From assembly GCA_937968065.1 (NCBI GenBank), contig CALBUD010000071.1:1-5347 (forward strand): a stretch of 5,347 nt of DNA, in the 5' to 3' direction. The translations under genes and the position numbers were made by a program. The DNA is from Candidatus Iainarchaeum sp. GTDB taxonomy: Archaea; Iainarchaeota; Iainarchaeia; Iainarchaeales; CSSED10-239. Numbering within the stretch: the stretch's first letter is position 1; each line of letters opens with the position of its first letter. The notes under the pieces were generated by a model. It was given only the letters and a program-made list of their open reading frames with translations. It did not search any database and was not told where the DNA came from. Below, in pieces: positions 2-5,345 of this stretch.

Positions 2-268
2 GTGTACCCTTCAACTTTTGATTATATAACTTTTATTTTATTACATATCTTTAGATTATTATTTGTAAATCTTTTATTTACAGGAATTTTTATATTCTTT
101 TTAATAATTGTTTTATTCTTATATGATAAGTTTAGAAATAAAAGATTAAAAAGAATAGATAACATAGCTTTAATAAAAAGTTTAACTTTAACAAACATAG
201 TTTTTTTTATAATTTTATTAATCTTTAATAAATTTTTAGCAATTATAACATTTTTAATATATTTTTAA
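2..268 (+). CDS. C-terminal part of a multi-pass integral membrane protein; the 5' end lies outside the window and the function is unknown
   Basis: The frame is open from the window edge to TAA at 266..268, which is unlikely by chance in such A+T-rich DNA where stop triplets are frequent. The translation is dominated by F/I/L and shows about 3 hydrophobic helices (YITFILLHIFRLLFVNLLF, GIFIFFLIIVLFLY, LTNIVFFIILLIFNKFLAIITFLIYF). A basic loop (DKFRNKRLKRID) separates them, consistent with the positive-inside rule. The GTG at position 2 is probably not the true start. Confidence 0.6.
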   Translation: MYPSTFDYITFILLHIFRLLFVNLLFTGIFIFFLIIVLFLYDKFRNKRLKRIDNIALIKSLTLTNIVFFIILLIFNKFLAIITFLIYF

Positions 269-270
269 AA

Positions 271-275
271 AAGGA
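271..275 (+). promoter_or_regulatory. Shine-Dalgarno-like ribosome-binding site (AAGGA) for the giant ORF
   Basis: AAGGA sits 6 nt upstream of ATG 282. An in-frame TAA at 276..278 makes ATG 282 the first possible start of the ORF. Confidence 0.5.
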
Positions 276-281
276 TAATAT

Positions 282-344
282 ATGATTAGAAATAAGATTT
301 GGTCAATAATTTTTTTAATATTAATAGTAAATAGTGTGTTTGCA
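282..344 (+). other. Sec-type signal peptide of the giant protein (aa 1-21)
   Basis: MIRNK forms a basic n-region, IWSIIFLILIV a hydrophobic core, and NSVFA-A a small-residue cleavage motif. Cleavage is predicted after A21 or A22. There is no lipobox Cys. Confidence 0.8.
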
Positions 345-3300
345 GCAAACATAGATCCAAACAGATTAAATCCAGAAACTATTTATTTTGAAGATAATAC
401 AACATATAATTTCCAATCAATAAATAATTCTAGTTGTTATACAGAATCTTTATCTCCAGAAGCTGTTGAAAGACTTTGGAAAGAAATTTTAGTAAATGGT
501 TTTGTTGTAGATGACTTAACAAGTAATCAACCAGAAAACTTTAATAGAGATACTCTTGAAAGAAATGAAGTTATTCTTACAAACCAAGATAGCAAAGCAA
601 ATGATATTGTTGGAAAAACAGAAATGCCAAATCAATTAATGAATCCTTTAGAAATGCCAGCTATTTTAGGTCAAGCTTGTCAAGGACCTTTTTCTTACGG
701 TATTGAAATTGAAGAGACTTTAAGAGTTGGAAGATGTGAAGGAGATGATTCTTTTGCATGTTATCTTGAAAATGAAGGTCTTTTCAGACAAAATGGAAAA
801 TTTGGTTTTTGGCCTCAAACTTTTTCTGTAAGTAGAGATTTTTTAGATATGCTTGGTCTTAGAAAATTACAAGAGGTAAGTGGTGAAATCTTAGATTCTG
901 ATCTTGATTATAATTCAAATGTTGATTTAGGATTATTTTCAGAAATGTCTTATGAAGAACTTGCAATGTTTAGAAAATATTATTTTACTGATGAAAATAT
1001 AACTGATGTTGAAGTTACAAAACTAACTTTGCTTTTAGATAAAGCAATACAGAATAGTGTAAGAACACAATCTTTTAATGCAAGTGTTGAAACTACATGT
1101 AAATCTGATAATTGTTATATAAATATGTACTCTTTATTTGATAAAGTTTTTAACCAATATTATTCAGCTGATATGGTATTTACTTCTATTTCACCAATTT
1201 TGATGAAATATACAGCCAAAATTTTTGATAAAATTCCAAAAAGAGCTTTTGGTGTAGATTTTGTAGATACTAAATCAAATGGTTTTATAAGAGGTAAAAA
1301 TGGACTTTTAGATAACATGTTAAACAACAAACAAAGTCCATTAAAAGCTTTTAAAACAGCTTACAAATATAATCAAATATCTAAAAACATGGATGATTAT
1401 ATAAGTCAACTTGCAAAAAGCAATAATGAAATTATTACAAATATTAATAGATTTGATATGAAACCACAATGGGATAAATATCTAGAATCTTTAAACTCTA
1501 AAAAAAATATAGATACTATAACAAATGAATTTTTCAAAACTGGAGAATTTACAAAATTAAATAAAGCTCAACAAAGAGTGTTTATGGAATCTATAATTGA
1601 TGTCCAAGATAACATAAAAGTTTCAAGAATGATACATGAAATTTCAAATAAAAATATAGATACTATTCTTGGTGCAAATAAAGGACTTCTTTTTGATAAA
1701 ACAAAAACTTTAGATGACTTCTATGCTTCTTTAACACATGAACAATATCTTGATTTACATAGAGAAGTTACAAGAATGAATACTTTAAATAAAGAATTTT
1801 CAAACTATTCTACAGGTCATTTTAAATGGGATGAAGGTGCAAATAACATTACTATGCTTAAAGATAGAGGAAAAATAATTGCAGGTCAAGAAGAAACAAT
1901 GAATAAAATAAGATTAAAAGGCGAAACTGGTTCTGTTGAAATTACAAACTCTTCAAAATATAATGATTTAATAACAGGAAACAAAGTTGAAGGAACAAGC
2001 ATAAAAAACACAGCAATAGATAGTTTAGATACAAAAGTTAAAACTGTTAATTTTGCAGATGGTCCACGTGATGTGACAATTATTGTACCTTATAAAGAAA
2101 CAACAGGTCCTGCAAATGCAGTTCCATATTCAGATATATCTAATTTTAGAAAGTCAGATGTTTTAATAGAATATACTTCTACAAAAGGAGATATAAAAAA
2201 AATAAGAGGATCTGTTTTAGATCCATCTGATATAGATCCTACAAAAAATATTTTAGCAAGAAGTGTTTCTGATGCTCCAATACCAGATGTAGATATTACT
2301 AAATATGGTATAGATCCTCTTGAAATTTCTTTAGGTTATGCAGAACAATTAGGTGTTAAAAGATTAAAAGATGCTGAAGAAGTTACAAACAATGTTATGA
2401 GGGTTTTAACTGATCAAGGATGGAGCACAGGAAGAGGATTAAGTTATGTTAACCAAAGACTTAAACAACAAAATGTAACCAAATGGGATAAAAGAGCAAT
2501 AGATATATTGGCAGATTCTGGAAAAGCTTATTTTTATAACTTTGCATATTGGCAAATAGCAACAGCAGGTTCAACTGTTTTAGGAGGTGCTTTTGATAGA
2601 TATAGTATGTTAAGACTTCCTGAAACATACACCTCAGTAATTATTAATCATGGTGAAACTGCAGATATATACAATGATGCTTATATTGATTTCTTTGTAA
2701 ATGATGGTTCAGATCAAGGAGATCTTTTCATGAAATATTTTAATTCTTTACTTTTCTGGATGGCAAATCTTTCAAAAGAAGCTTTAGCAAACACAGAATG
2801 GGAAACAACACAAGGCTTTTCAAACTGGGTTAGAAAGATTACAGAAGGAACAATTAGAAGAAGTTTTACAGATAATGTAGCTTTGTTTACAGATGCTATA
2901 AACAACGGTTGTAACAAAGGTTCTTGTAACTTTACAATTGGAAATTCAAAACTTCTTGAAAATACAACTTTACAAAAATCAATTGATTCAAACTCACAAA
3001 TAAACACAACTATTAATCATGATATTGATTTAAGTTTTAGTATTAGTGGAGCTTTAAAAACCACAAGTTATTTACTTGAAAATACTTCTAAAGAAAACAT
3101 GGATAAATATGGTCAAACATTAATAAGCTTTACTCACCATACAGATTATGATGGTTCAATGGCTGGTTTTAAAACACAAGATTCTGTAAAATTAACAACT
3201 GAGATTAGTGAAGAAAATACCTGTGCAGATAGACTTAAAAACTTAGAAGTTATGGGTGTTCCTATAGGTTTTACAAATACCTGGACAGGAAAAACATATA

Positions 3301-5168
3301 GAACAGGTCTTGTTGCTGCTGGTTTTTCAAATCTTATGTATTATACTTTTACGGTTCCTCATCACAGAGTTGCAATGGGAATAATTTTTGGAAATTTAGT
3401 ACCACAAATAATAATTGTTCCAGAAATATATAACTGTACAGATCATGAAGAAGGATACTACACTCATGTCTTTGTTGCAAAAGAAGAAATTGAAAGAATT
3501 GAAAAAGATCCAAAAAACAAAGTTGGAGATGCAATTTCAAAAGGTGCAGATTCTGTTGAACAGTTATTAACAGGAGTTACAAAAAACACAGAGCTTGAAC
3601 AATCAATAACAAACACAACACAAGAAGTTAAAAACTTTGCAGAAACAAAAATAAAAGATAATCCAATAGTTCAATCAAGAGTTGAAACTATAGGAAACTC
3701 TGATGGTTCATTAAAAGGAAGATTTTTCTTCTTTGAACTTGGAGCAAACTCAATGTGTAGAGCAAGTGGATATAATGATAAAGGTGTTGAACATTTAGTT
3801 GATTCAAAAAGAAAAGAAACTTTAATAATTGATAAAGAACAAGGAGAAGTTTCAATTATTGATAAAGATGGAAATATTAAAAACATTATTGGTAATGAAC
3901 ATAAAGACTGGGTAAGATTAATTGCAACAAATCTTGGTATTCCTGCAAAAGTAATACCTCACAGCATCTCTTACATACCAGTTCCAGACACAGACACTCC
4001 TTTATTTAATATTGATGTTTTTGGAAATTTAAGAGTTGAAGATATTGATTTCTTAAATTGTTTAAGACAAAATTATTATGAGCAAACAGGTCTTGAAATG
4101 ACAGGTAATGTTTTAACAGAATATCTTGGTTCTGTAAAACAAATAACTTCAACAAACAACTTTAATCCTGAAACACAATATGATATAATACCAAAAGGAA
4201 GAAACAATGTTTATGAAATTGTTGCTGAAGGAACTCCTAGAAAAGTTGCAAAAGGAGAAAATTCAAAAGTTAATATTTTAGGAGATAGAACAACTAAAAT
4301 ATATCCTATAGAAGGACAAGAAGTAACTATTGGAAAAAATATAGCAATACAGTTTGAAAGAGGGCAGTTAATATATAGTGGTGAGAAAAATAGTTATATC
4401 ATGTGGGTTGAACAAACCTTTGTTATGCACCAATCTGAAATTAAAGGAATGGATGTTTCTGTAAATAAAGAAAAAAATGAAGTTACAGGTTGTGAAGAAT
4501 TTAGCTTTGATATGAGTGTAAGACCTGATCCTGATAACCCTCAAGCAGTTGATAATGCAGAAAAAATGAACACTGCTCTTGAAAAGGTAGGACCTTTCCA
4601 AATGTTTGAAACACCAAGTAAAACATTTATCTTTTATACAACAGATCCTCCAGAATGTCAAAACAGAATGAAAATTATTGATAAAGAAACAGGACAAGTA
4701 ATTGATCAAGCAATTGATGATATTATTCAAACTCCAAATGGATTTATTGTTAAAACAGAAGATGGTGCTGAACATAATTTTGAATTTTCAGCAGATGATG
4801 GTGTTCCAAAACTTAAATATAATGATCAAACTGAAACTTTACTTTCAGCTCAAGGAAAGAACGGTGCTTTCTGGTATGATCCACAAACAGGTAACTGGTA
4901 TACAGAGAATGGACATTTAATACCATTTAATCCAGACTATAGAGATGGAATAACTTTTAAAGTAGGAGAAGATGGAAAAGTTCATGGAACCACAATACAA
5001 AATCTTATGAATCCATTTGCAGGTTCTGGTTCTGGAGATAGAGGTGCCTTTAACATACCTCTTGCACCTGAAAAGTTTTTGCCATTTACTCTTTATGTTT
5101 TAATAATAATGGCAAGCTTTATGTATCTTTTCCAGAAAAAAGAAAGTTTAAAGAAAAAGAAAAAATAA
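282..5168 (+). CDS. Giant (1628 aa) secreted, C-terminally anchored surface protein of unknown family
   Basis: The ORF runs 4887 nt without interruption in A+T-rich DNA and has an RBS-like AAGGA upstream. An N-terminal signal peptide begins directly at the first ATG. The C-terminus carries a hydrophobic helix and a Lys-rich tail. Codon usage is consistent throughout (AGA Arg, AAA Lys, TTA Leu), TGG is used for Trp, and the stop is TAA at 5166..5168. Confidence 0.95.
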   Translation: MIRNKIWSIIFLILIVNSVFAANIDPNRLNPETIYFEDNTTYNFQSINNSSCYTESLSPEAVERLWKEILVNGFVVDDLTSNQPENFNRDTLERNEVILTNQDSKANDIVGKTEMPNQLMNPLEMPAILGQACQGPFSYGIEIEETLRVGRCEGDDSFACYLENEGLFRQNGKFGFWPQTFSVSRDFLDMLGLRKLQEVSGEILDSDLDYNSNVDLGLFSEMSYEELAMFRKYYFTDENITDVEVTKLTLLLDKAIQNSVRTQSFNASVETTCKSDNCYINMYSLFDKVFNQYYSADMVFTSISPILMKYTAKIFDKIPKRAFGVDFVDTKSNGFIRGKNGLLDNMLNNKQSPLKAFKTAYKYNQISKNMDDYISQLAKSNNEIITNINRFDMKPQWDKYLESLNSKKNIDTITNEFFKTGEFTKLNKAQQRVFMESIIDVQDNIKVSRMIHEISNKNIDTILGANKGLLFDKTKTLDDFYASLTHEQYLDLHREVTRMNTLNKEFSNYSTGHFKWDEGANNITMLKDRGKIIAGQEETMNKIRLKGETGSVEITNSSKYNDLITGNKVEGTSIKNTAIDSLDTKVKTVNFADGPRDVTIIVPYKETTGPANAVPYSDISNFRKSDVLIEYTSTKGDIKKIRGSVLDPSDIDPTKNILARSVSDAPIPDVDITKYGIDPLEISLGYAEQLGVKRLKDAEEVTNNVMRVLTDQGWSTGRGLSYVNQRLKQQNVTKWDKRAIDILADSGKAYFYNFAYWQIATAGSTVLGGAFDRYSMLRLPETYTSVIINHGETADIYNDAYIDFFVNDGSDQGDLFMKYFNSLLFWMANLSKEALANTEWETTQGFSNWVRKITEGTIRRSFTDNVALFTDAINNGCNKGSCNFTIGNSKLLENTTLQKSIDSNSQINTTINHDIDLSFSISGALKTTSYLLENTSKENMDKYGQTLISFTHHTDYDGSMAGFKTQDSVKLTTEISEENTCADRLKNLEVMGVPIGFTNTWTGKTYRTGLVAAGFSNLMYYTFTVPHHRVAMGIIFGNLVPQIIIVPEIYNCTDHEEGYYTHVFVAKEEIERIEKDPKNKVGDAISKGADSVEQLLTGVTKNTELEQSITNTTQEVKNFAETKIKDNPIVQSRVETIGNSDGSLKGRFFFFELGANSMCRASGYNDKGVEHLVDSKRKETLIIDKEQGEVSIIDKDGNIKNIIGNEHKDWVRLIATNLGIPAKVIPHSISYIPVPDTDTPLFNIDVFGNLRVEDIDFLNCLRQNYYEQTGLEMTGNVLTEYLGSVKQITSTNNFNPETQYDIIPKGRNNVYEIVAEGTPRKVAKGENSKVNILGDRTTKIYPIEGQEVTIGKNIAIQFERGQLIYSGEKNSYIMWVEQTFVMHQSEIKGMDVSVNKEKNEVTGCEEFSFDMSVRPDPDNPQAVDNAEKMNTALEKVGPFQMFETPSKTFIFYTTDPPECQNRMKIIDKETGQVIDQAIDDIIQTPNGFIVKTEDGAEHNFEFSADDGVPKLKYNDQTETLLSAQGKNGAFWYDPQTGNWYTENGHLIPFNPDYRDGITFKVGEDGKVHGTTIQNLMNPFAGSGSGDRGAFNIPLAPEKFLPFTLYVLIIMASFMYLFQKKESLKKKKK
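1503..1796 (+). repeat. In-frame tandem duplication of a 49-codon (147-nt) unit inside a predicted helical region
   Basis: An exact 17-nt direct repeat AAAAATATAGATACTAT occurs at 1503..1519 and 1650..1666, encoding KNIDTI at aa 408-413 and 457-462. A second anchor lies at the same 147-nt offset: GTTTCAAGAATGA at 1620..1632 versus GTTACAAGAATGA at 1767..1779, encoding VSRM and VTRM. The sequence between the anchors has diverged. Confidence 0.5.
3306..3419 (+). other. Internal hydrophobic hairpin (aa 1009-1046), which may be a re-entrant or membrane-interacting element or a buried core
   Basis: GLVAAGFSNLMYYTFTV and VAMGIIFGNLVPQIIIV are joined by the polar turn PHHR. Apart from the signal peptide and the C-terminal anchor, this is the most hydrophobic stretch in the protein. 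Confidence 0.4.
5076..5165 (+). other. C-terminal tripartite anchoring or sorting signal (aa 1599-1628)
   Basis: The sequence is FLPFT, then LYVLIIMASFMYLF (hydrophobic), then QKKESLKKKKK (basic tail). It is preceded by a flexible GSGSGDRG linker. The architecture matches sortase- or archaeosortase-type signals, or a simple tail anchor. Confidence 0.75.
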
Positions 5169-5194
5169 TTTCTTTTTTTTATTTTTTTCCTTTT
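5169..5194 (+). terminator. Oligo-T termination region for the giant gene
   Basis: The sequence immediately after the stop is TTTC, T8 (5173..5180), A, T7 (5182..5188), CC, T4. No GC-rich stem precedes it. Only a weak, almost all A-U hairpin is possible (5154..5162 pairing with 5169..5177). Confidence 0.4.
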
Positions 5195-5331
5195 ATAATT
5201 TTAATTAATCTTTTTGAATTATTTCTAGAATCTTTATTTTTATCTTTAGATCCATTTAATGGTGATTTTTTTGTGCTAGAAACAGGATCTGATCTACTGT
5301 TAAAACCTATTTTTCTTCTTGGTAATGGCAT
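5179..5331 (-). CDS. Small (50 aa) highly basic, low-complexity protein, convergent with the giant gene and absent from the supplied ORF track
   Basis: By hand translation the start ATG is the complement of 5329..5331 and the stop TAA is the complement of 5179..5181. The product is MPLPRRKIGFNSRSDPVSSTKKSPLNGSKDKNKDSRNNSKRLIKIIKGKK, with 16 K/R and 3 D/E. A strong AAGGAG lies 8 nt upstream, and an in-frame TAA at 5344..5346 bounds the ORF. The low-complexity composition is the main reason for caution. Confidence 0.4.
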   Translation of the reverse strand: MPLPRRKIGFNSRSDPVSSTKKSPLNGSKDKNKDSRNNSKRLIKIIKGKK

Positions 5332-5339
5332 TTTTAACA

Positions 5340-5345
5340 CTCCTT
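5340..5345 (-). promoter_or_regulatory. Shine-Dalgarno site (AAGGAG) for the small minus-strand ORF
   Basis: The reverse complement of 5332..5347 reads ATAAGGAGTGTTAAAA and is followed by ATG. That is a full AAGGAG with an 8-nt spacer. The TAA overlapping the SD could be the stop of an upstream minus-strand gene lying beyond the window. Confidence 0.5.

Follow-up and report, generated by a model that had tools for sequence, protein, structure and literature searches.

Gene content of the window

The stretch of DNA analysed here (the window; 5,347 nt, GC content 0.19-0.33 per 500-nt window) is dominated by one giant open reading frame (Table 1), which starts with ATG and takes up 4,887 nt (91%), in line with the roughly nine tenths and the low GC content given in a first-pass annotation of this DNA. 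Because the frame stays open for 1,628 codons at ~28% GC and the product has full-length homologues, we consider the giant ORF a real gene. Upstream lies the 3' part of a second gene, g11, detected with an HMM built from four related loci; its orthologues are 163-185 aa long with 5-6 hydrophobic segments. g11 is found immediately 5' of the giant gene in 27 loci and precedes it across most of the phylum. The short spacer between the two genes, with its Shine-Dalgarno-like element 6 nt ahead of the ATG, implies that they are co-transcribed. From what is generally known of archaeal termination, the oligo-T tract behind the stop codon resembles an archaeal terminator and would fit the giant gene being the last cistron.

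Table 1. Features of the window (nucleotide positions in the window; aa numbering of the giant protein)
Feature	Position	Strand	Basis or remark
g11, 3' part, small polytopic membrane protein	2..268	+	g11 HMM match, E=7.5e-21
13-nt intergenic spacer with Shine-Dalgarno-like AGGA (272-275)	269..281	+	read from sequence
Giant ORF	282..5168	+	1,628 aa plus stop codon; full-length homologues, 23-70% identity
Predicted Sec (type I) signal peptide, aa 1-21, cleavage after VFA	282..344	+	n/h/c layout; conserved c-region
Conserved Cys-rich N-terminal "head", aa 22-320	345..1241	+	family conservation; AlphaFold pLDDT<50
Variable middle region, aa 330-715	1269..2426	+	AlphaFold pLDDT 75-93; least conserved portion
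Conserved central region, aa 750-1220	2529..3941	+	invariant residues; AlphaFold confidence low
Motif D803-F-x-x-N-x-G-S-D-Q-G-D-L-F816	2688..2729	+	longest run of phylum-conserved positions in family
Membrane-proximal beta-rich domain, aa 1225-1544	3954..4913	+	AlphaFold pLDDT 80-92, mostly beta-strand
Linker from beta domain to anchor, aa 1545-1590	4914..5051	+	pLDDT<50; Gly/Ser-rich near end
Juxtamembrane motif N-I-P-L-A-P-E, aa 1591-1597	5052..5072	+	conserved in 42/42 complete family members
C-terminal TM helix, aa 1599-1617	5076..5132	+	hydropathy; kept in all complete homologues; low-confidence helix in model
Lys-rich cytoplasmic tail QKKESLKKKKK, aa 1618-1628	5133..5165	+	basic tails in all complete homologues
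Oligo-T tract directly after stop codon	5169..5194	+	read from sequence

Topology and composition of the giant protein

The N-terminus (MIRNK-IWSIIFLILIV-NSVFA, followed by AN) is organized into the n, h and c regions of a Sec signal peptide, and small residues occupy positions -3 and -1; its c-region NSVFA is retained in the family consensus, and the full-length homologues likewise possess an N-terminal hydrophobic segment. The layout is of the Sec type (type I) and not that of class III (pilin) signals. At the C-terminus, the hydrophobic stretch FLPFTLYVLIIMASFMYLF reaches a 19-residue Kyte-Doolittle mean of up to 2.08, and the Lys-rich tail that follows it, together with the basic tails of all complete homologues, fits the positive-inside rule. 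AlphaFold models both termini as helices with low confidence, and the topology given here derives from hydropathy, the positive-inside rule and conservation. We rejected aa 1029-1050 as a third TM helix, since the segment is not conserved (median best 19-residue hydropathy of 1.43 in 41 homologues) and is polar in distant members. The topology supports an exported, C-terminally anchored envelope protein, and the signal peptide and C-terminal anchor recognized at first pass were thereby upheld, as was the description of the sequence as containing one short duplication and a few short motif recurrences: KNIDTI (aa 408 and 457) is the only repeated hexamer, five pentamers recur where about one is expected, and BLASTP of the protein against itself (E<=10) returned the identity match alone.

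The 14 cysteines (aa 52, 133, 152, 160, 273, 278, 877, 882, 981, 1052, 1159, 1260, 1404 and 1459) lie exactly where they were originally listed, with one C-x7-C (152/160) and two C-x4-C spacings (273/278 and 877/882). Ten are invariant across 41 homologues and the remaining four are gained or lost strictly in pairs; the cysteines thus behave like disulfide cysteines, which agrees with the extracellular disulfides suggested earlier.

Conserved regions and domain searches

Phylum-invariant residues of the head include C52, C152, C160, R148, N258 and Y283-F286-D287-K288-N291, and its C273/C278 pair is present in 37 of 41 sequences. Invariant residues in the central region comprise C877/C882, C981, E933 and C1052-x-D1054...G1058-Y-Y-x-H1062. 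The motif DFxxNxGSDQGDLF is identical in all sampled sequences across the phylum, and D803-F816, which is acidic and Gly-rich, is a candidate cation-binding loop. Close to the membrane, the family consensus is N-[IL]-P-[SL]-x-P-E, with both Pro residues found in 100%, Asn in 37 and Glu in 38 of the 42 complete members.

Searches of Pfam, NCBIfam and PHROGs returned nothing above threshold and a PDB sequence search gave no match; no curated family covers the protein. Ig, cadherin or PKD-type repeats and named domains are lacking, in agreement with the first pass, which had recognized no named adhesin repeat. Approximately two-thirds of the protein has no confident AlphaFold model. The modelled middle region comprises a helical bundle at aa ~342-509, a small beta domain at ~530-666 and a long helix at 679-711; its Foldseek matches in PDB and BFVD were not significant (best E=0.9 and 0.046, respectively). 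For the beta-rich domain, the top Foldseek matches in PDB were nearly all beta-propellers (tricorn 1k32 with E=4.6e-5 and prob 0.85, Kelch/SAKe, WD40 and the phage phi11 RBP), the TM-scores reaching just 0.06-0.14; this domain may be beta-propeller-like.

A phylum-wide family with a shared C-terminal module

The first-pass annotation had described the protein as an orphan, which does not hold. A first homologue search yielded 20 full-length clusters; species-representative genomes, searched with the pattern GSDQGDLF, contained 57 loci with relatives, most of them full length and down to 23% identity; and an exhaustive search retrieved 202 representative clusters (50% identity). The 57 loci are nearly all labeled as Iainarchaeota/Diapherotrites or as unnamed archaeon, and include Ca. 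Forterrea multitransposorum, Ca. Iainarchaeum andersonii and GW2011_AR10. Ca. Forterrea multitransposorum is the nearest named relative (64% identity), placing the source close to Ca. Forterrea within the Iainarchaeota/Diapherotrites and bearing out the compact, low-GC DPANN genome that had been surmised. Throughout the phylum the family remains single-copy, and its members are collinear from end to end.

The giant protein is modular: its C-terminal ~570 aa, running from the beta-rich domain through the linker and the N[IL]PxxPE motif to the TM helix and the basic tail, are shared with stand-alone surface proteins of Micrarchaeota, and its N-terminal ~1,050 aa are Iainarchaeota-specific. hhalign aligned the giant protein with the Micrarchaeota protein P0135 at 99.5% probability over aa 1049-1619, the N-terminal two-thirds of the partner being unrelated. 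In the Micrarchaeota relatives the juxtamembrane motif takes the form LPSWPE and the D803-F816 motif is absent. No pilus genes were found near these relatives in the two Micrarchaeota contexts examined, which argues that the C-terminal module is not intrinsically a pilus component.

The type IV filament neighborhood

Across the family, the giant gene and g11 always adjoin the same type IV filament gene set, which encodes a T2SSF/TadC-like platform together with pilins of five families and two additional pilin-like proteins. This conserved neighborhood is the decisive context of the gene and had been missed at first pass. A 12-gene block is identical in four divergent loci. Flanking genes have been rearranged around the conserved set, which has itself remained intact. 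In a neighbor-HMM scan, the pilin-family genes g4-g9, and g1/g2 where the flank was long enough, occurred in the same order, with L061 as the sole exception among loci with several kb of upstream sequence. Class III signals ([KR][GA]|Q, with Gln at +1) were found in 20/26 g2, 35/43 g4, 25/35 g5, 32/39 g6 and 37/41 g9 proteins. Pfam T2SSF matched 10 of 17 g1 orthologues (best E=3.9e-6), mostly just under the curated cutoff, as for the AR10 orthologue (24.6 bits, cutoff 25.2); searching PDB profiles for the g1 platform gave no match. Directly upstream of g1, the deep-branching loci encode a T2SSE ATPase (64-66 bits, cutoff 24.9) of 575-760 aa with an extended N-terminus; in the window's own clade, neither an ATPase nor a prepilin peptidase occurs within 10 kb. 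The giant gene stands outside the pilin transcription unit, as one or two opposite-strand genes lie between the g1-g9 array and the pair formed by g11 and the giant gene: g10, or in AR10 a Zn-ribbon protein and a 420-aa protein. The link of the giant gene to the pilus genes is purely genomic.

Proposed role and alternative explanations

We propose, with a probability of slightly over one half (about 0.55), that the giant protein belongs to a type IV filament (T4P/TFF) system found throughout the Iainarchaeota and serves as its large non-pilin surface partner. It is common for archaeal T4P loci to encode an "S-layer-like" protein, large and with a signal peptide, C-terminal TM and conserved cysteines, or alternatively large "adhesin-like" proteins (PMC4858521; 10.64898/2026.04.22.720090), and for DPANN, Makarova et al. 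(2019; PMC6393860) pointed to T4P "dark matter" loci accompanied by specific surface proteins. A close counterpart is offered by the "S-layer-like" proteins of archaeal T4P loci, such as arCOG05471 in Thermoproteales (Makarova, Koonin and Albers, 2016; PMC4858521), which share with the giant protein a signal peptide, a single C-terminal TM anchor, several conserved cysteines expected as disulfides, and a position within or adjoining a T4P set rich in diverse minor-pilin-like genes; for either, the function is a prediction. The giant protein is, however, much larger, carries the distinctive N[IL]PxxPE juxtamembrane motif and is DPANN-restricted (Iainarchaeota, with the C-terminal module also in Micrarchaeota), and no sequence relation is apparent via Pfam or NCBIfam. 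The locus also follows the logic of TFF system 2 (10.64898/2026.04.22.720090), with a single large platform gene, an ATPase with extended N-terminus, pilins of which some have SPIII motifs and others lack them, additional small membrane proteins and a single secreted protein of very large size. Whereas the "adhesin-like" proteins of TFF system 2/subsystem 4G are rich in Ig folds or beta-helices, or PilY-like (DUF2341) (10.64898/2026.04.22.720090), none of these features is detectable in the giant protein, which is non-repetitive and TM-anchored.

The protein is Sec-exported, disulfide-stabilised and held in the envelope by its single C-terminal TM helix. As a surface partner, it would use the C-terminal module as membrane-proximal pedestal and anchor, while its Cys-rich head would point outward along with the helical/beta middle region and the invariant acidic GSDQGDLF loop. 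The ectodomain might then form a local envelope structure where the filament emerges, an "S-layer-like" role, or a contact surface working with the pilus, an "adhesin-like" role.

An alternative that we hold to be unlikely is that the protein is the main S-layer lattice protein of Iainarchaeota, TM-anchored, and that it sits next to the pilus genes only through inherited synteny or the coordination of envelope biogenesis. Lengths of 1,000-1,700 aa and C-terminal anchors are found in several archaeal S-layer proteins. The signal peptide, single C-terminal TM and large ectodomain would suit such a role, as would the single-copy, phylum-wide distribution and the occurrence of the pedestal module in stand-alone Micrarchaeota surface proteins beyond pilus loci. 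The proteins proposed for DPANN S-layers, namely NEQ300 of Nanoarchaeum equitans, Micr_00292 of Ca. Micrarchaeum harzensis and MJ1_0160/MJ1_0707 of Nanobdella aerobiophila, are likewise large exported envelope proteins, some with a C-terminal TM helix, but they show 4-5 or more Ig-like folds and 13-17 or more predicted sites of N-glycosylation, and their genes rank with the most strongly expressed ones (10.1101/2023.10.27.564410). The giant protein, in contrast, has no repeats, what could be modelled with confidence is a helical bundle, the small beta domain of the middle region and the beta-rich, possibly propeller-like domain, and its sequons are not enriched (16 observed, 18.5 +/- 3.8 expected). 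Furthermore, its gene is the second cistron after g11, unusual for a very highly expressed gene, and it is collinear across the phylum whereas S-layer proteins usually diverge past recognition above the genus level.

We regard as improbable a PilY1-like priming or tip factor, whose N[IL]PxxPE-TM-basic end would be a processing signal and whose ectodomain, once cleaved off, would pass to the minor-pilin-like proteins and ride on or gate the filament. Like bacterial PilY1/PilC, the giant protein is a large non-pilin with a Sec signal encoded with a minor pilin set, here ~7 distinct, 1:1 conserved pilin-like proteins, an arrangement resembling bacterial fimU-pilVWXY1E. The conserved acidic loop described above may bind a cation in the manner of one in PilY1, and the C-terminal domain of PilY1 is a beta-propeller, the fold recovered by Foldseek for the beta-rich domain, an assignment that the low TM-scores leave weak. 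PilY-like adhesins have also been reported in archaeal TFF subsystems (10.64898/2026.04.22.720090). Against this, no sequence or profile similarity to PilY1/PilC was found: Pfam gave no match to PilY1/PilC or DUF2341, PDB profile and sequence searches did not find PilY1, and no vWA domain was detected. PilY1 is without a membrane anchor, whereas the TM helix and basic tail are conserved here, and the membrane-proximal position of the propeller-like domain is consistent with an anchored protein.

As to processing, the three-part C-terminus (Pro-containing motif with both Pro invariant, hydrophobic helix, basic cluster) is laid out like sortase/archaeosortase/exosortase signals such as PGF-CTERM, VPXXXP-CTERM and Loki-CTERM. 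Curated CTERM models did not recognize it, however (Loki-CTERM reached only E=0.03-0.16, below its cutoff), and no cognate sortase was identified for the N[IL]PxxPE motif. CTERM signals mark several unrelated substrates per genome; this motif is so far seen in one family, occurs in no other protein of the fetched flanks and is missing from the neighboring giant surface proteins with TM and basic tails at a Micrarchaeota locus. g11, in addition, has no catalytic-type conserved Cys, His or Ser.

The first-pass proposal of an autonomous host-attachment or cell-cell adhesin, independent of the neighboring pilus genes, appears no less doubtful. It draws on the surface topology, on the variable, exposed middle region (aa 330-750) and on the general dependence of DPANN on cell contact, Forterrea being predicted symbiotic (PMC5905446). 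The linkage to the pilus genes nevertheless outlasts phylum-level divergence and flank rearrangement, no adhesin-type domains were detected, and the single-copy, collinear protein with its many invariant residues differs from typical fast-evolving, expanded adhesin families; most Diapherotrites, moreover, are inferred to be free-living (PMC5905446). Finally, we consider it very improbable that the protein is an enzyme anchored at the surface, for instance a hydrolase of envelope or external polymers, with the invariant D803...D814, E933, D1054, H1062 and H1498 as active or metal-binding site: the acidic and His residues of the central region are strictly invariant across 23% identity and the region's lack of a confident model leaves room for an unrecognised catalytic fold, but no enzyme family was matched among profiles and PDB sequences even at permissive thresholds, classical catalytic motifs are absent, and structural cation sites just as typically have invariant Gly/Asp loops.

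Taken together, the giant protein probably functions as a surface partner of the pilus system. That a single-copy family is conserved across a phylum for which a free-living state was mostly inferred (PMC5905446) suggests a core envelope or pilus role rather than that of a fast-evolving, host-specific adhesin, and since the protein is conserved and not hypervariable, it probably interacts mainly with pilus and envelope components of its own cell and not with a variable host ligand. Of the earlier suggestion of an undescribed family of giant envelope proteins, the family itself stands as undescribed, while the broader category to which it would belong, that of non-pilin surface partners, had already been predicted by comparative genomics.

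A Phylum-Wide Family of Giant Envelope Proteins

The giant gene is present in single copy across its phylum and has remained persistently linked to a set of type IV filament genes, even though the genes around that set have been exchanged. The first-pass annotation had regarded its product as an orphan surface protein encoded by an ORF filling about nine tenths of the window; the ORF has that extent (see the feature table), and each of the 14 Cys residues then reported lies exactly where it had been placed. The N-terminus runs through charged (MIRNK), hydrophobic (IWSIIFLILIV) and small-residue (NSVFA/AN) parts in the order of a Sec signal peptide, the c-region of which is kept in the family consensus, and the C-terminal hydrophobic stretch leads into a Lys-rich tail. 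A signal peptide and a single C-terminal TM anchor, as originally proposed, recur in all complete homologues, and an exported, C-terminally anchored topology is predicted from conservation, hydropathy and the positive-inside rule, together with AlphaFold helices of low confidence. We rejected a second TM helix at aa 1029-1050, where the hydrophobicity is weaker and not conserved as that of a membrane helix.

The sequence is largely non-repetitive, as had been noted at first reading: BLASTP of the protein against itself revealed no internal repeats, self-BLAST and the Pfam repeat families gave no tandem repeats of the Ig-like, cadherin, PKD or beta-helix kinds, and the sole repeated hexamer is KNIDTI, in two copies (aa 408 and aa 457). 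Searches for known domains in Pfam and NCBIfam, which the first-pass annotation had recommended, and in PHROGs returned noise only, the best matches being CLN5 (E=0.086), YycE-like (E=0.2) and two function-unknown PHROGs (E>0.03). A PDB sequence search with the single protein likewise gave only noise (E>0.2), and a PDB search with a profile of the C-terminal 884 aa gave nothing at E<=10.

The supposed orphan status did not survive, as relatives were found at 57 species-level loci and in 202 representative clusters. A first search yielded 20 clusters of full-length homologues (1,617-1,759 aa, 37-70% identity), one of which carries the label 'Candidatus ainarchaeum sp.'. The 57 loci emerged when a single genome of each prokaryotic species was scanned; wherever the label names a phylum, it indicates DPANN archaea of the Iainarchaeota/Diapherotrites type, save for one labelled Micrarchaeota, and many are labelled 'archaeon' only. 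Among them are the complete genomes of Ca. Forterrea multitransposorum, the closest named relative (64% identity; CP045477.1), and GW2011_AR10 (CP010424.1; hereafter AR10), as well as Ca. Iainarchaeum andersonii, and most full-length loci align over nearly the entire protein, down to ~25% identity at the lowest. The clusters, defined at 50% identity, were collected in an exhaustive HMMER search whose profile covered the C-terminal 884 residues (167 at E<=1e-10, 101 at E<=1e-30). A word-index search, when repeated with a phylum-wide profile of 33 sequences, gained a single fragment over its earlier set.

Conservation was assessed in an alignment of 41 complete sequences with 23-67% identity to the window protein. 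Ten Cys (C52, C152, C160, C877, C882, C981, C1052, C1260, C1404 and C1459) are invariant in all 41, C273 and C278 are both found in the same 37, and C133 and C1159 (nt 678-680 and 3756-3758) are both found in the same 14, which make up the Forterrea-like clade, and are jointly absent elsewhere. With ten Cys invariant and the other four varying in pairs, this is the pattern that a disulfide-bonded extracellular protein would show, consistent with the extracellular disulfides postulated in the first-pass annotation. Each paired co-occurrence may represent one evolutionary event, for C133 and C1159 because the 14 sequences are a single clade; a disulfide between these two, if formed, would require the Cys-rich head (aa 22-320) to fold back on the pedestal region near the C-terminus, over a distance of more than 1,000 residues. 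The longest conserved run in the family is D803-F-x-x-N-x-G-S-D-Q-G-D-L-F816.

AlphaFold2, run on two segments with a 21-sequence alignment, was confident only for the middle of the protein (aa 330-715) and the beta domain (aa 1225-1544). The middle is the least conserved part, and Foldseek found for the N-terminal/middle model no significant PDB neighbour (best E=0.9, the archaeal virus spike VP5, prob 0.05) and nothing significant in a viral library (best E=0.046); on these values a viral fusogen or spike reading was rejected. Matches of the C-terminal model were nearly all beta-propellers, led by tricorn (E=4.6e-5, prob 0.85) and including designed and natural Kelch domains, WD40 and a phage receptor-binding protein, at RMSD ~20 A; the resemblance is suggestive only, and we use 'propeller-like' with reservation because the TM-scores are only 0.06-0.14. 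The head and the central region (aa 750-1220) had pLDDT <50 and therefore allow no fold inference for either.

Features of the window, of the giant protein and of the loci of relatives (L0xx, fetched loci carrying the giant gene or, in L064/L065, its distant Micrarchaeota relative; g1-g11, genes of the type IV filament block beside it)
Feature	Position	Strand	Description
Giant ORF	window 282..5168	+	ATG start, 1,628 codons, 91% of window
Upstream partial ORF	window 2..268		g11 (HMM E=7.5e-21)
53-codon ORF	window 5179-5340	-	very basic peptide (MPLPRRKIGFNSRSDPVSSTKKSPLNGSKDKNKDSRNNSKRLIKIIKGKK)
Equivalent of 53-codon ORF	L001 14964-15116		called as gene, 50 aa
Middle	aa 330-715		helical bundle, small beta domain, long helix; pLDDT 75-93
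Beta domain	aa 1225-1544		mostly beta-strand; pLDDT 80-92
C-terminal hydrophobic stretch	aa 1599-1617		19 residues, then QKKESLKKKKK
g1			725-850 aa (725-751 aa in the four divergent relatives), 8-9 hydrophobic segments
g2, g4, g5, g6, g9			small proteins; N-termini e.g. MIKNNKGQA/FEAYQLLIAFVISVAILG and MKLISLKNSKGQA/FSTFQLLIAAVVALALLG
g3, g11			small polytopic membrane proteins
g7, g8			N-terminal hydrophobic helix, without class III motif
g10		opposite	cytoplasmic protein
g7, examples	L001 6734-7390; L003 6358-7095		192-263 aa, 4-6 Cys
g4 tandem copies, examples	L015 3394/4239/5127; L025 3142/4175/5096; L038 4218/4790/5405		
Extra gene between g1 and g2	L002 3426-3914		162 aa, without hydrophobic segment
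Genes replacing g10 in AR10	L049 6810-8973		302-aa protein with C-terminal zinc ribbons and 420-aa function-unknown protein, between g9 and g11
Second T2SSE ATPase, examples	L049 19373-20710; L029 18255-20000	-	
Rce1-like/CPBP protease gene (PF02517)	L001 20980-21591; L002 19906-20556	-	5-6 kb downstream of giant gene
Micrarchaeota giant protein 1	L064/L065 3356-6919		1,187 aa
Micrarchaeota giant protein 2	L064/L065 15486-19565		1,359 aa, Beta_helix/NosD repeats
Micrarchaeota giant protein 3	L064/L065 21164-end		at least 1,332 aa

A Conserved Gene Block Ending in the Giant Gene

Gene context beyond the window was inferred from the loci of relatives. Four divergent relatives have an identical block of 12 genes, with the giant gene in last position, bounded by genes for an AP endonuclease and a ferredoxin on one side and for an Asp/Asn-tRNA synthetase on the other. 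HMMs of the block genes g1-g11 were built and all fetched loci were searched with them. Among loci whose upstream sequence extends for several kb, every one but a single exception has g4-g9, together with g1 and g2 where the flank was long enough, ahead of the giant gene in the same order, and this order holds in Ca. I. andersonii and AR10; the loci giving no matches to these genes had less than ~1.2 kb of upstream sequence, except L061, which gave a weak partial match. Only 13 nt, containing AGGA, separate the g11 stop from the giant gene ATG, and an oligo-T tract follows the giant gene stop codon. These two genes form a unit, and one or two genes of opposite orientation stand between it and g1-g9; the cluster of g1-g11 and the giant gene is conserved but does not make up one operon. 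We rejected an origin from a mobile element or provirus, since divergent genomes have the block in the same position, flanked by housekeeping genes (AP endonuclease, ferredoxin, Asp/Asn-tRNA synthetase and DHH phosphoesterase).

Individual loci show additions and replacements. An extra gene between g1 and g2 in L002 is missing from the other loci, and in AR10 the place of g10 is taken by two other genes. Downstream of the giant gene, the 53-codon ORF of the window resembles its equivalent in L001 (43% over 30 aa, E=0.026), a similarity found in one genome only (L001/L010, same contig); the ORF may encode a small conserved basic protein or may be a chance ORF in AT-rich DNA.

Type IV Filament Components

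A gene for a T2SSE/VirB11-family ATPase lies directly upstream of g1 on the same strand in L029, L038 and L042 (PF00437, 64-66 bits against a cutoff of 24.9), and its Walker A motif GSRGSGKT is also present in L039 and L050. Loci with this arrangement are deep-branching; the Forterrea-like clade of the window has AP endonuclease and ferredoxin there instead, and its ATPase is presumably encoded elsewhere in the genome. Full-profile matches of g1 to Pfam T2SSF (PF00482; the TadC/FlaJ/PilC platform) were obtained in 10 of 17 orthologues, at a best E of 3.9e-6 and mostly just under the curated cutoff (24.6 bits against 25.2 for AR10), and a PDB profile search with g1 was empty.

The class III motif [KR][GA]/Q, with 13 or more residues of hydrophobic sequence after it, is present in 71-90% of the detected orthologues of g2 (20/26), g4 (35/43), g5 (25/35), g6 (32/39) and g9 (37/41), almost always with Gln at +1, a residue characteristic of the EppA-processed Epd-type pilins of methanogens. 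The pilin call is motif-level, no Pfam pilin model having matched the pilin-like genes. Scans of the locus genes and the fetched flanks revealed no class III signal (prepilin) peptidase of family A24; the archaeal prepilin peptidase is often encoded away from the filament locus. Both g11 and g3 were considered as a prepilin peptidase or sortase and rejected, having neither a family match (A24 included) nor a conserved catalytic-type residue. Judged from their sequences, these are genuine type IV filament loci, because they combine a T2SSF-like g1, class III signal motifs and, in the deep-branching ones, a T2SSE ATPase.

Other features of the loci also concern filament genes. In most deep-branching loci (L049, L029 and ~18 other distant ones) a second T2SSE ATPase (Walker A GNTGSGKT; PF00437, 123-135 bits) is encoded on the opposite strand, ~3-6 kb downstream of the giant gene, with a weak g1/T2SSF-like match beside it in L049 and L035, so that a second type IV filament or archaellum-like system adjoins the first. 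Several loci have two or three tandem genes of the g4 family (KGQAFSTFQLLIAAVVALA...) and only one copy of each of the other pilin-like genes, which suggests that g4 is the major, diversifying filament subunit and the other pilin-like proteins are minor pilins. The g7 protein starts with M-x-E-F-T-L-S-K-[IL]-N-[ML]-L-I-F-V, without a basic leader or cleavage motif, and thereby resembles the mature N-terminus F-T-L-x-E of bacterial type IV pilins, as if made 'pre-cleaved'.

The C-Terminal Motif and the Pedestal

All 42 complete family members carry N-[IL]-P-[SL]-x-P-E, with both Pro invariant, followed by ~20 hydrophobic residues and a K/R-rich tail, the same three-part layout (motif, TM helix, basic cluster) as in sortase and archaeosortase sorting signals; it is found in the Micrarchaeota relatives too. 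Five representative C-termini, scanned against NCBIfam at E<=10, were recognised by no curated CTERM model, the sub-threshold matches being Loki-CTERM and Heimdall-CTERM over the TM and basic part (E=0.03-0.26). N[IL]PxxPE-type motifs were found in no other protein within the +/-10 kb flanks, and the motif is absent from neighbouring giant surface proteins in Micrarchaeota. With no CTERM match and no other carrier in the flanks, a general sorting signal is so far unsupported. An Rce1-like/CPBP intramembrane protease gene, present downstream in two Forterrea-like genomes only and missing from the other contexts examined, is reported solely in view of the conserved motif at the C-terminus of the giant protein.

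The weaker tier of the exhaustive HMMER search is made up of 1,200-1,450-aa proteins whose similarity is confined to their C-terminal ends, some of them from Ca. Micrarchaeota/Micrarchaeia MAGs; seven were scanned and contained no Pfam domains. In a profile-profile comparison, window aa 1049-1619 aligned to residues 738-1294 of one such protein with 99.5% probability, taking in its LPSWPE motif and TM helix, and the N-terminal two-thirds of the same protein is unrelated to the giant protein and has no GSDQGDLF. Micrarchaeota relatives (three loci in two distinct contexts) have housekeeping genes around them and no pilus genes nearby. Because the C-terminal module thus occurs in Micrarchaeota away from pilus genes, the giant protein is, by these alignments, a lineage-specific outer part of ~1,050 residues on a membrane-proximal pedestal/anchor of ~570 residues (beta domain, linker, N[IL]PxxPE, TM helix and basic tail), and the pedestal predates the association with the pilus locus.

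One of the two Micrarchaeota contexts has other giant secreted proteins nearby, with a TM and basic tail and without the motif. On contig L064/L065 there are three of these within 20 kb, the first two with a signal peptide, C-terminal TM and basic tail and no LPSWPE, and the contig looks like a surface-protein island.

Proposed Role and Alternatives

Large accessory surface proteins of archaeal type IV filament loci are a kind of element already known from comparative genomics, DPANN included. Some T4P loci encode a large 'S-layer-like' protein with a signal peptide, a single C-terminal TM and conserved Cys, and large possible adhesins are found as well (Makarova et al. 2016, PMC4858521); DPANN T4P loci contain 'dark matter' pilins and specific surface proteins (Makarova et al. 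2019, PMC6393860). In the 'system 2' loci of a 2026 preprint, a single platform gene and an ATPase with an N-terminal extension are accompanied by pilin-like proteins both with and without SPIII, by membrane proteins and by large adhesin-like proteins; its authors suggest that S-layer-like proteins may ready the envelope for filament passage (10.64898/2026.04.22.720090). The giant protein shares with the T4P-associated 'S-layer-like' protein (arCOG05471 type) the signal peptide, the single C-terminal TM anchor and several conserved Cys; nothing related from arCOG05471 or related arCOGs surfaced through Pfam/NCBIfam. The claim of an undescribed family of envelope proteins stands in part: the family is undescribed, without recognisable domains and in no curated collection, and it is neither an orphan nor of an unpredicted kind. 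Novelty lies in a non-Ig architecture without repeats, in conservation as a single copy throughout the phylum, in the pedestal common with Micrarchaeota and in the juxtamembrane motif N[IL]PxxPE, which is conserved, a claim more modest than 'orphan giant adhesin', yet beyond that of a routine hypothetical protein.

The giant protein is an exported, anchored, disulfide-rich envelope protein, and we propose, with a probability of roughly 0.55, that it is a large non-pilin partner of the type IV filament system. The pedestal would sit at the membrane near the assembly machinery with the outer part pointing outward, and the cell's own pilus and envelope components would be expected as its main contacts because the protein is conserved, not hypervariable.

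Topology, size and ubiquity would also fit the main S-layer protein, an assignment we consider unlikely. Proposed DPANN S-layer proteins (NEQ300/Micr_00292/MJ1_0160 type) have multiple Ig-fold repeats, are enriched in N-glycosylation sites and show top expression (10.1101/2023.10.27.564410), whereas the giant protein has no repeats and no enrichment of sequons (16 seen, 18.5 +/- 3.8 expected), and its confidently modelled parts are a helical bundle, a small beta domain and a beta-rich, perhaps propeller-like domain. Its phylum-wide collinearity and the position of its gene as second cistron also speak against this assignment.

A PilY1-like factor freed by cleavage at the C-terminal motif is suggested by the minor-pilin-like gene set and the propeller-like domain, but is doubtful: there is no sequence similarity to PilY1, with no Pfam match at E<=1 and no PDB sequence or profile match at E<=10 to the PilY1/PilC C-terminal domain (PF05567) or DUF2341, and proteins of the PilY1/PilC type are soluble or secreted without a membrane anchor, whereas a TM helix and basic tail are conserved in the giant protein. 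An equally speculative variant takes the family as an undescribed envelope module of two DPANN phyla (Iainarchaeota and Micrarchaeota), a beta-rich pedestal whose terminal N[IL]PSxPE-TM-basic signal would be cut by a membrane peptidase, the freed or lipid-anchored 170-kDa ectodomain being passed in Iainarchaeota to the seven pilin-like proteins as a PilY1-analogous priming or tip factor for cell contact; if true, both the sorting signal and, among archaea, this class of giant adhesin carried by a pilus would be new. The autonomous host adhesin favored by the first-pass annotation is similarly improbable in view of the persistent linkage to the pilus locus, the high conservation of the protein and the free-living lifestyle inferred for most Diapherotrites (PMC5905446). 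A surface enzyme, which the invariant acidic and His residues would permit, has no supporting profile or structure and is very improbable.

Significance

To our knowledge, Iainarchaeota (Diapherotrites) have no cultured member, and we know of no experimental work on their envelope or their contact with other cells; Micrarchaeota have co-cultures. An isolated-looking giant 'hypothetical protein' now becomes a component of a defined, phylum-wide set of ~12 genes, which encodes, beside the giant protein itself, a platform, two small membrane proteins and seven pilin-like proteins, to which deep-branching members add the ATPase. Experimental handles are offered by the ten invariant Cys, the invariant acidic loop, the juxtamembrane motif and the pedestal common with Micrarchaeota. 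Were the protein an S-layer protein, it would represent a new S-layer architecture for DPANN. Should it function together with the pilus, it would add a member without repeats or Ig folds to the large accessory proteins of archaeal type IV filament loci, a poorly understood class, and would be a candidate determinant of surface or partner contact in Iainarchaeota.
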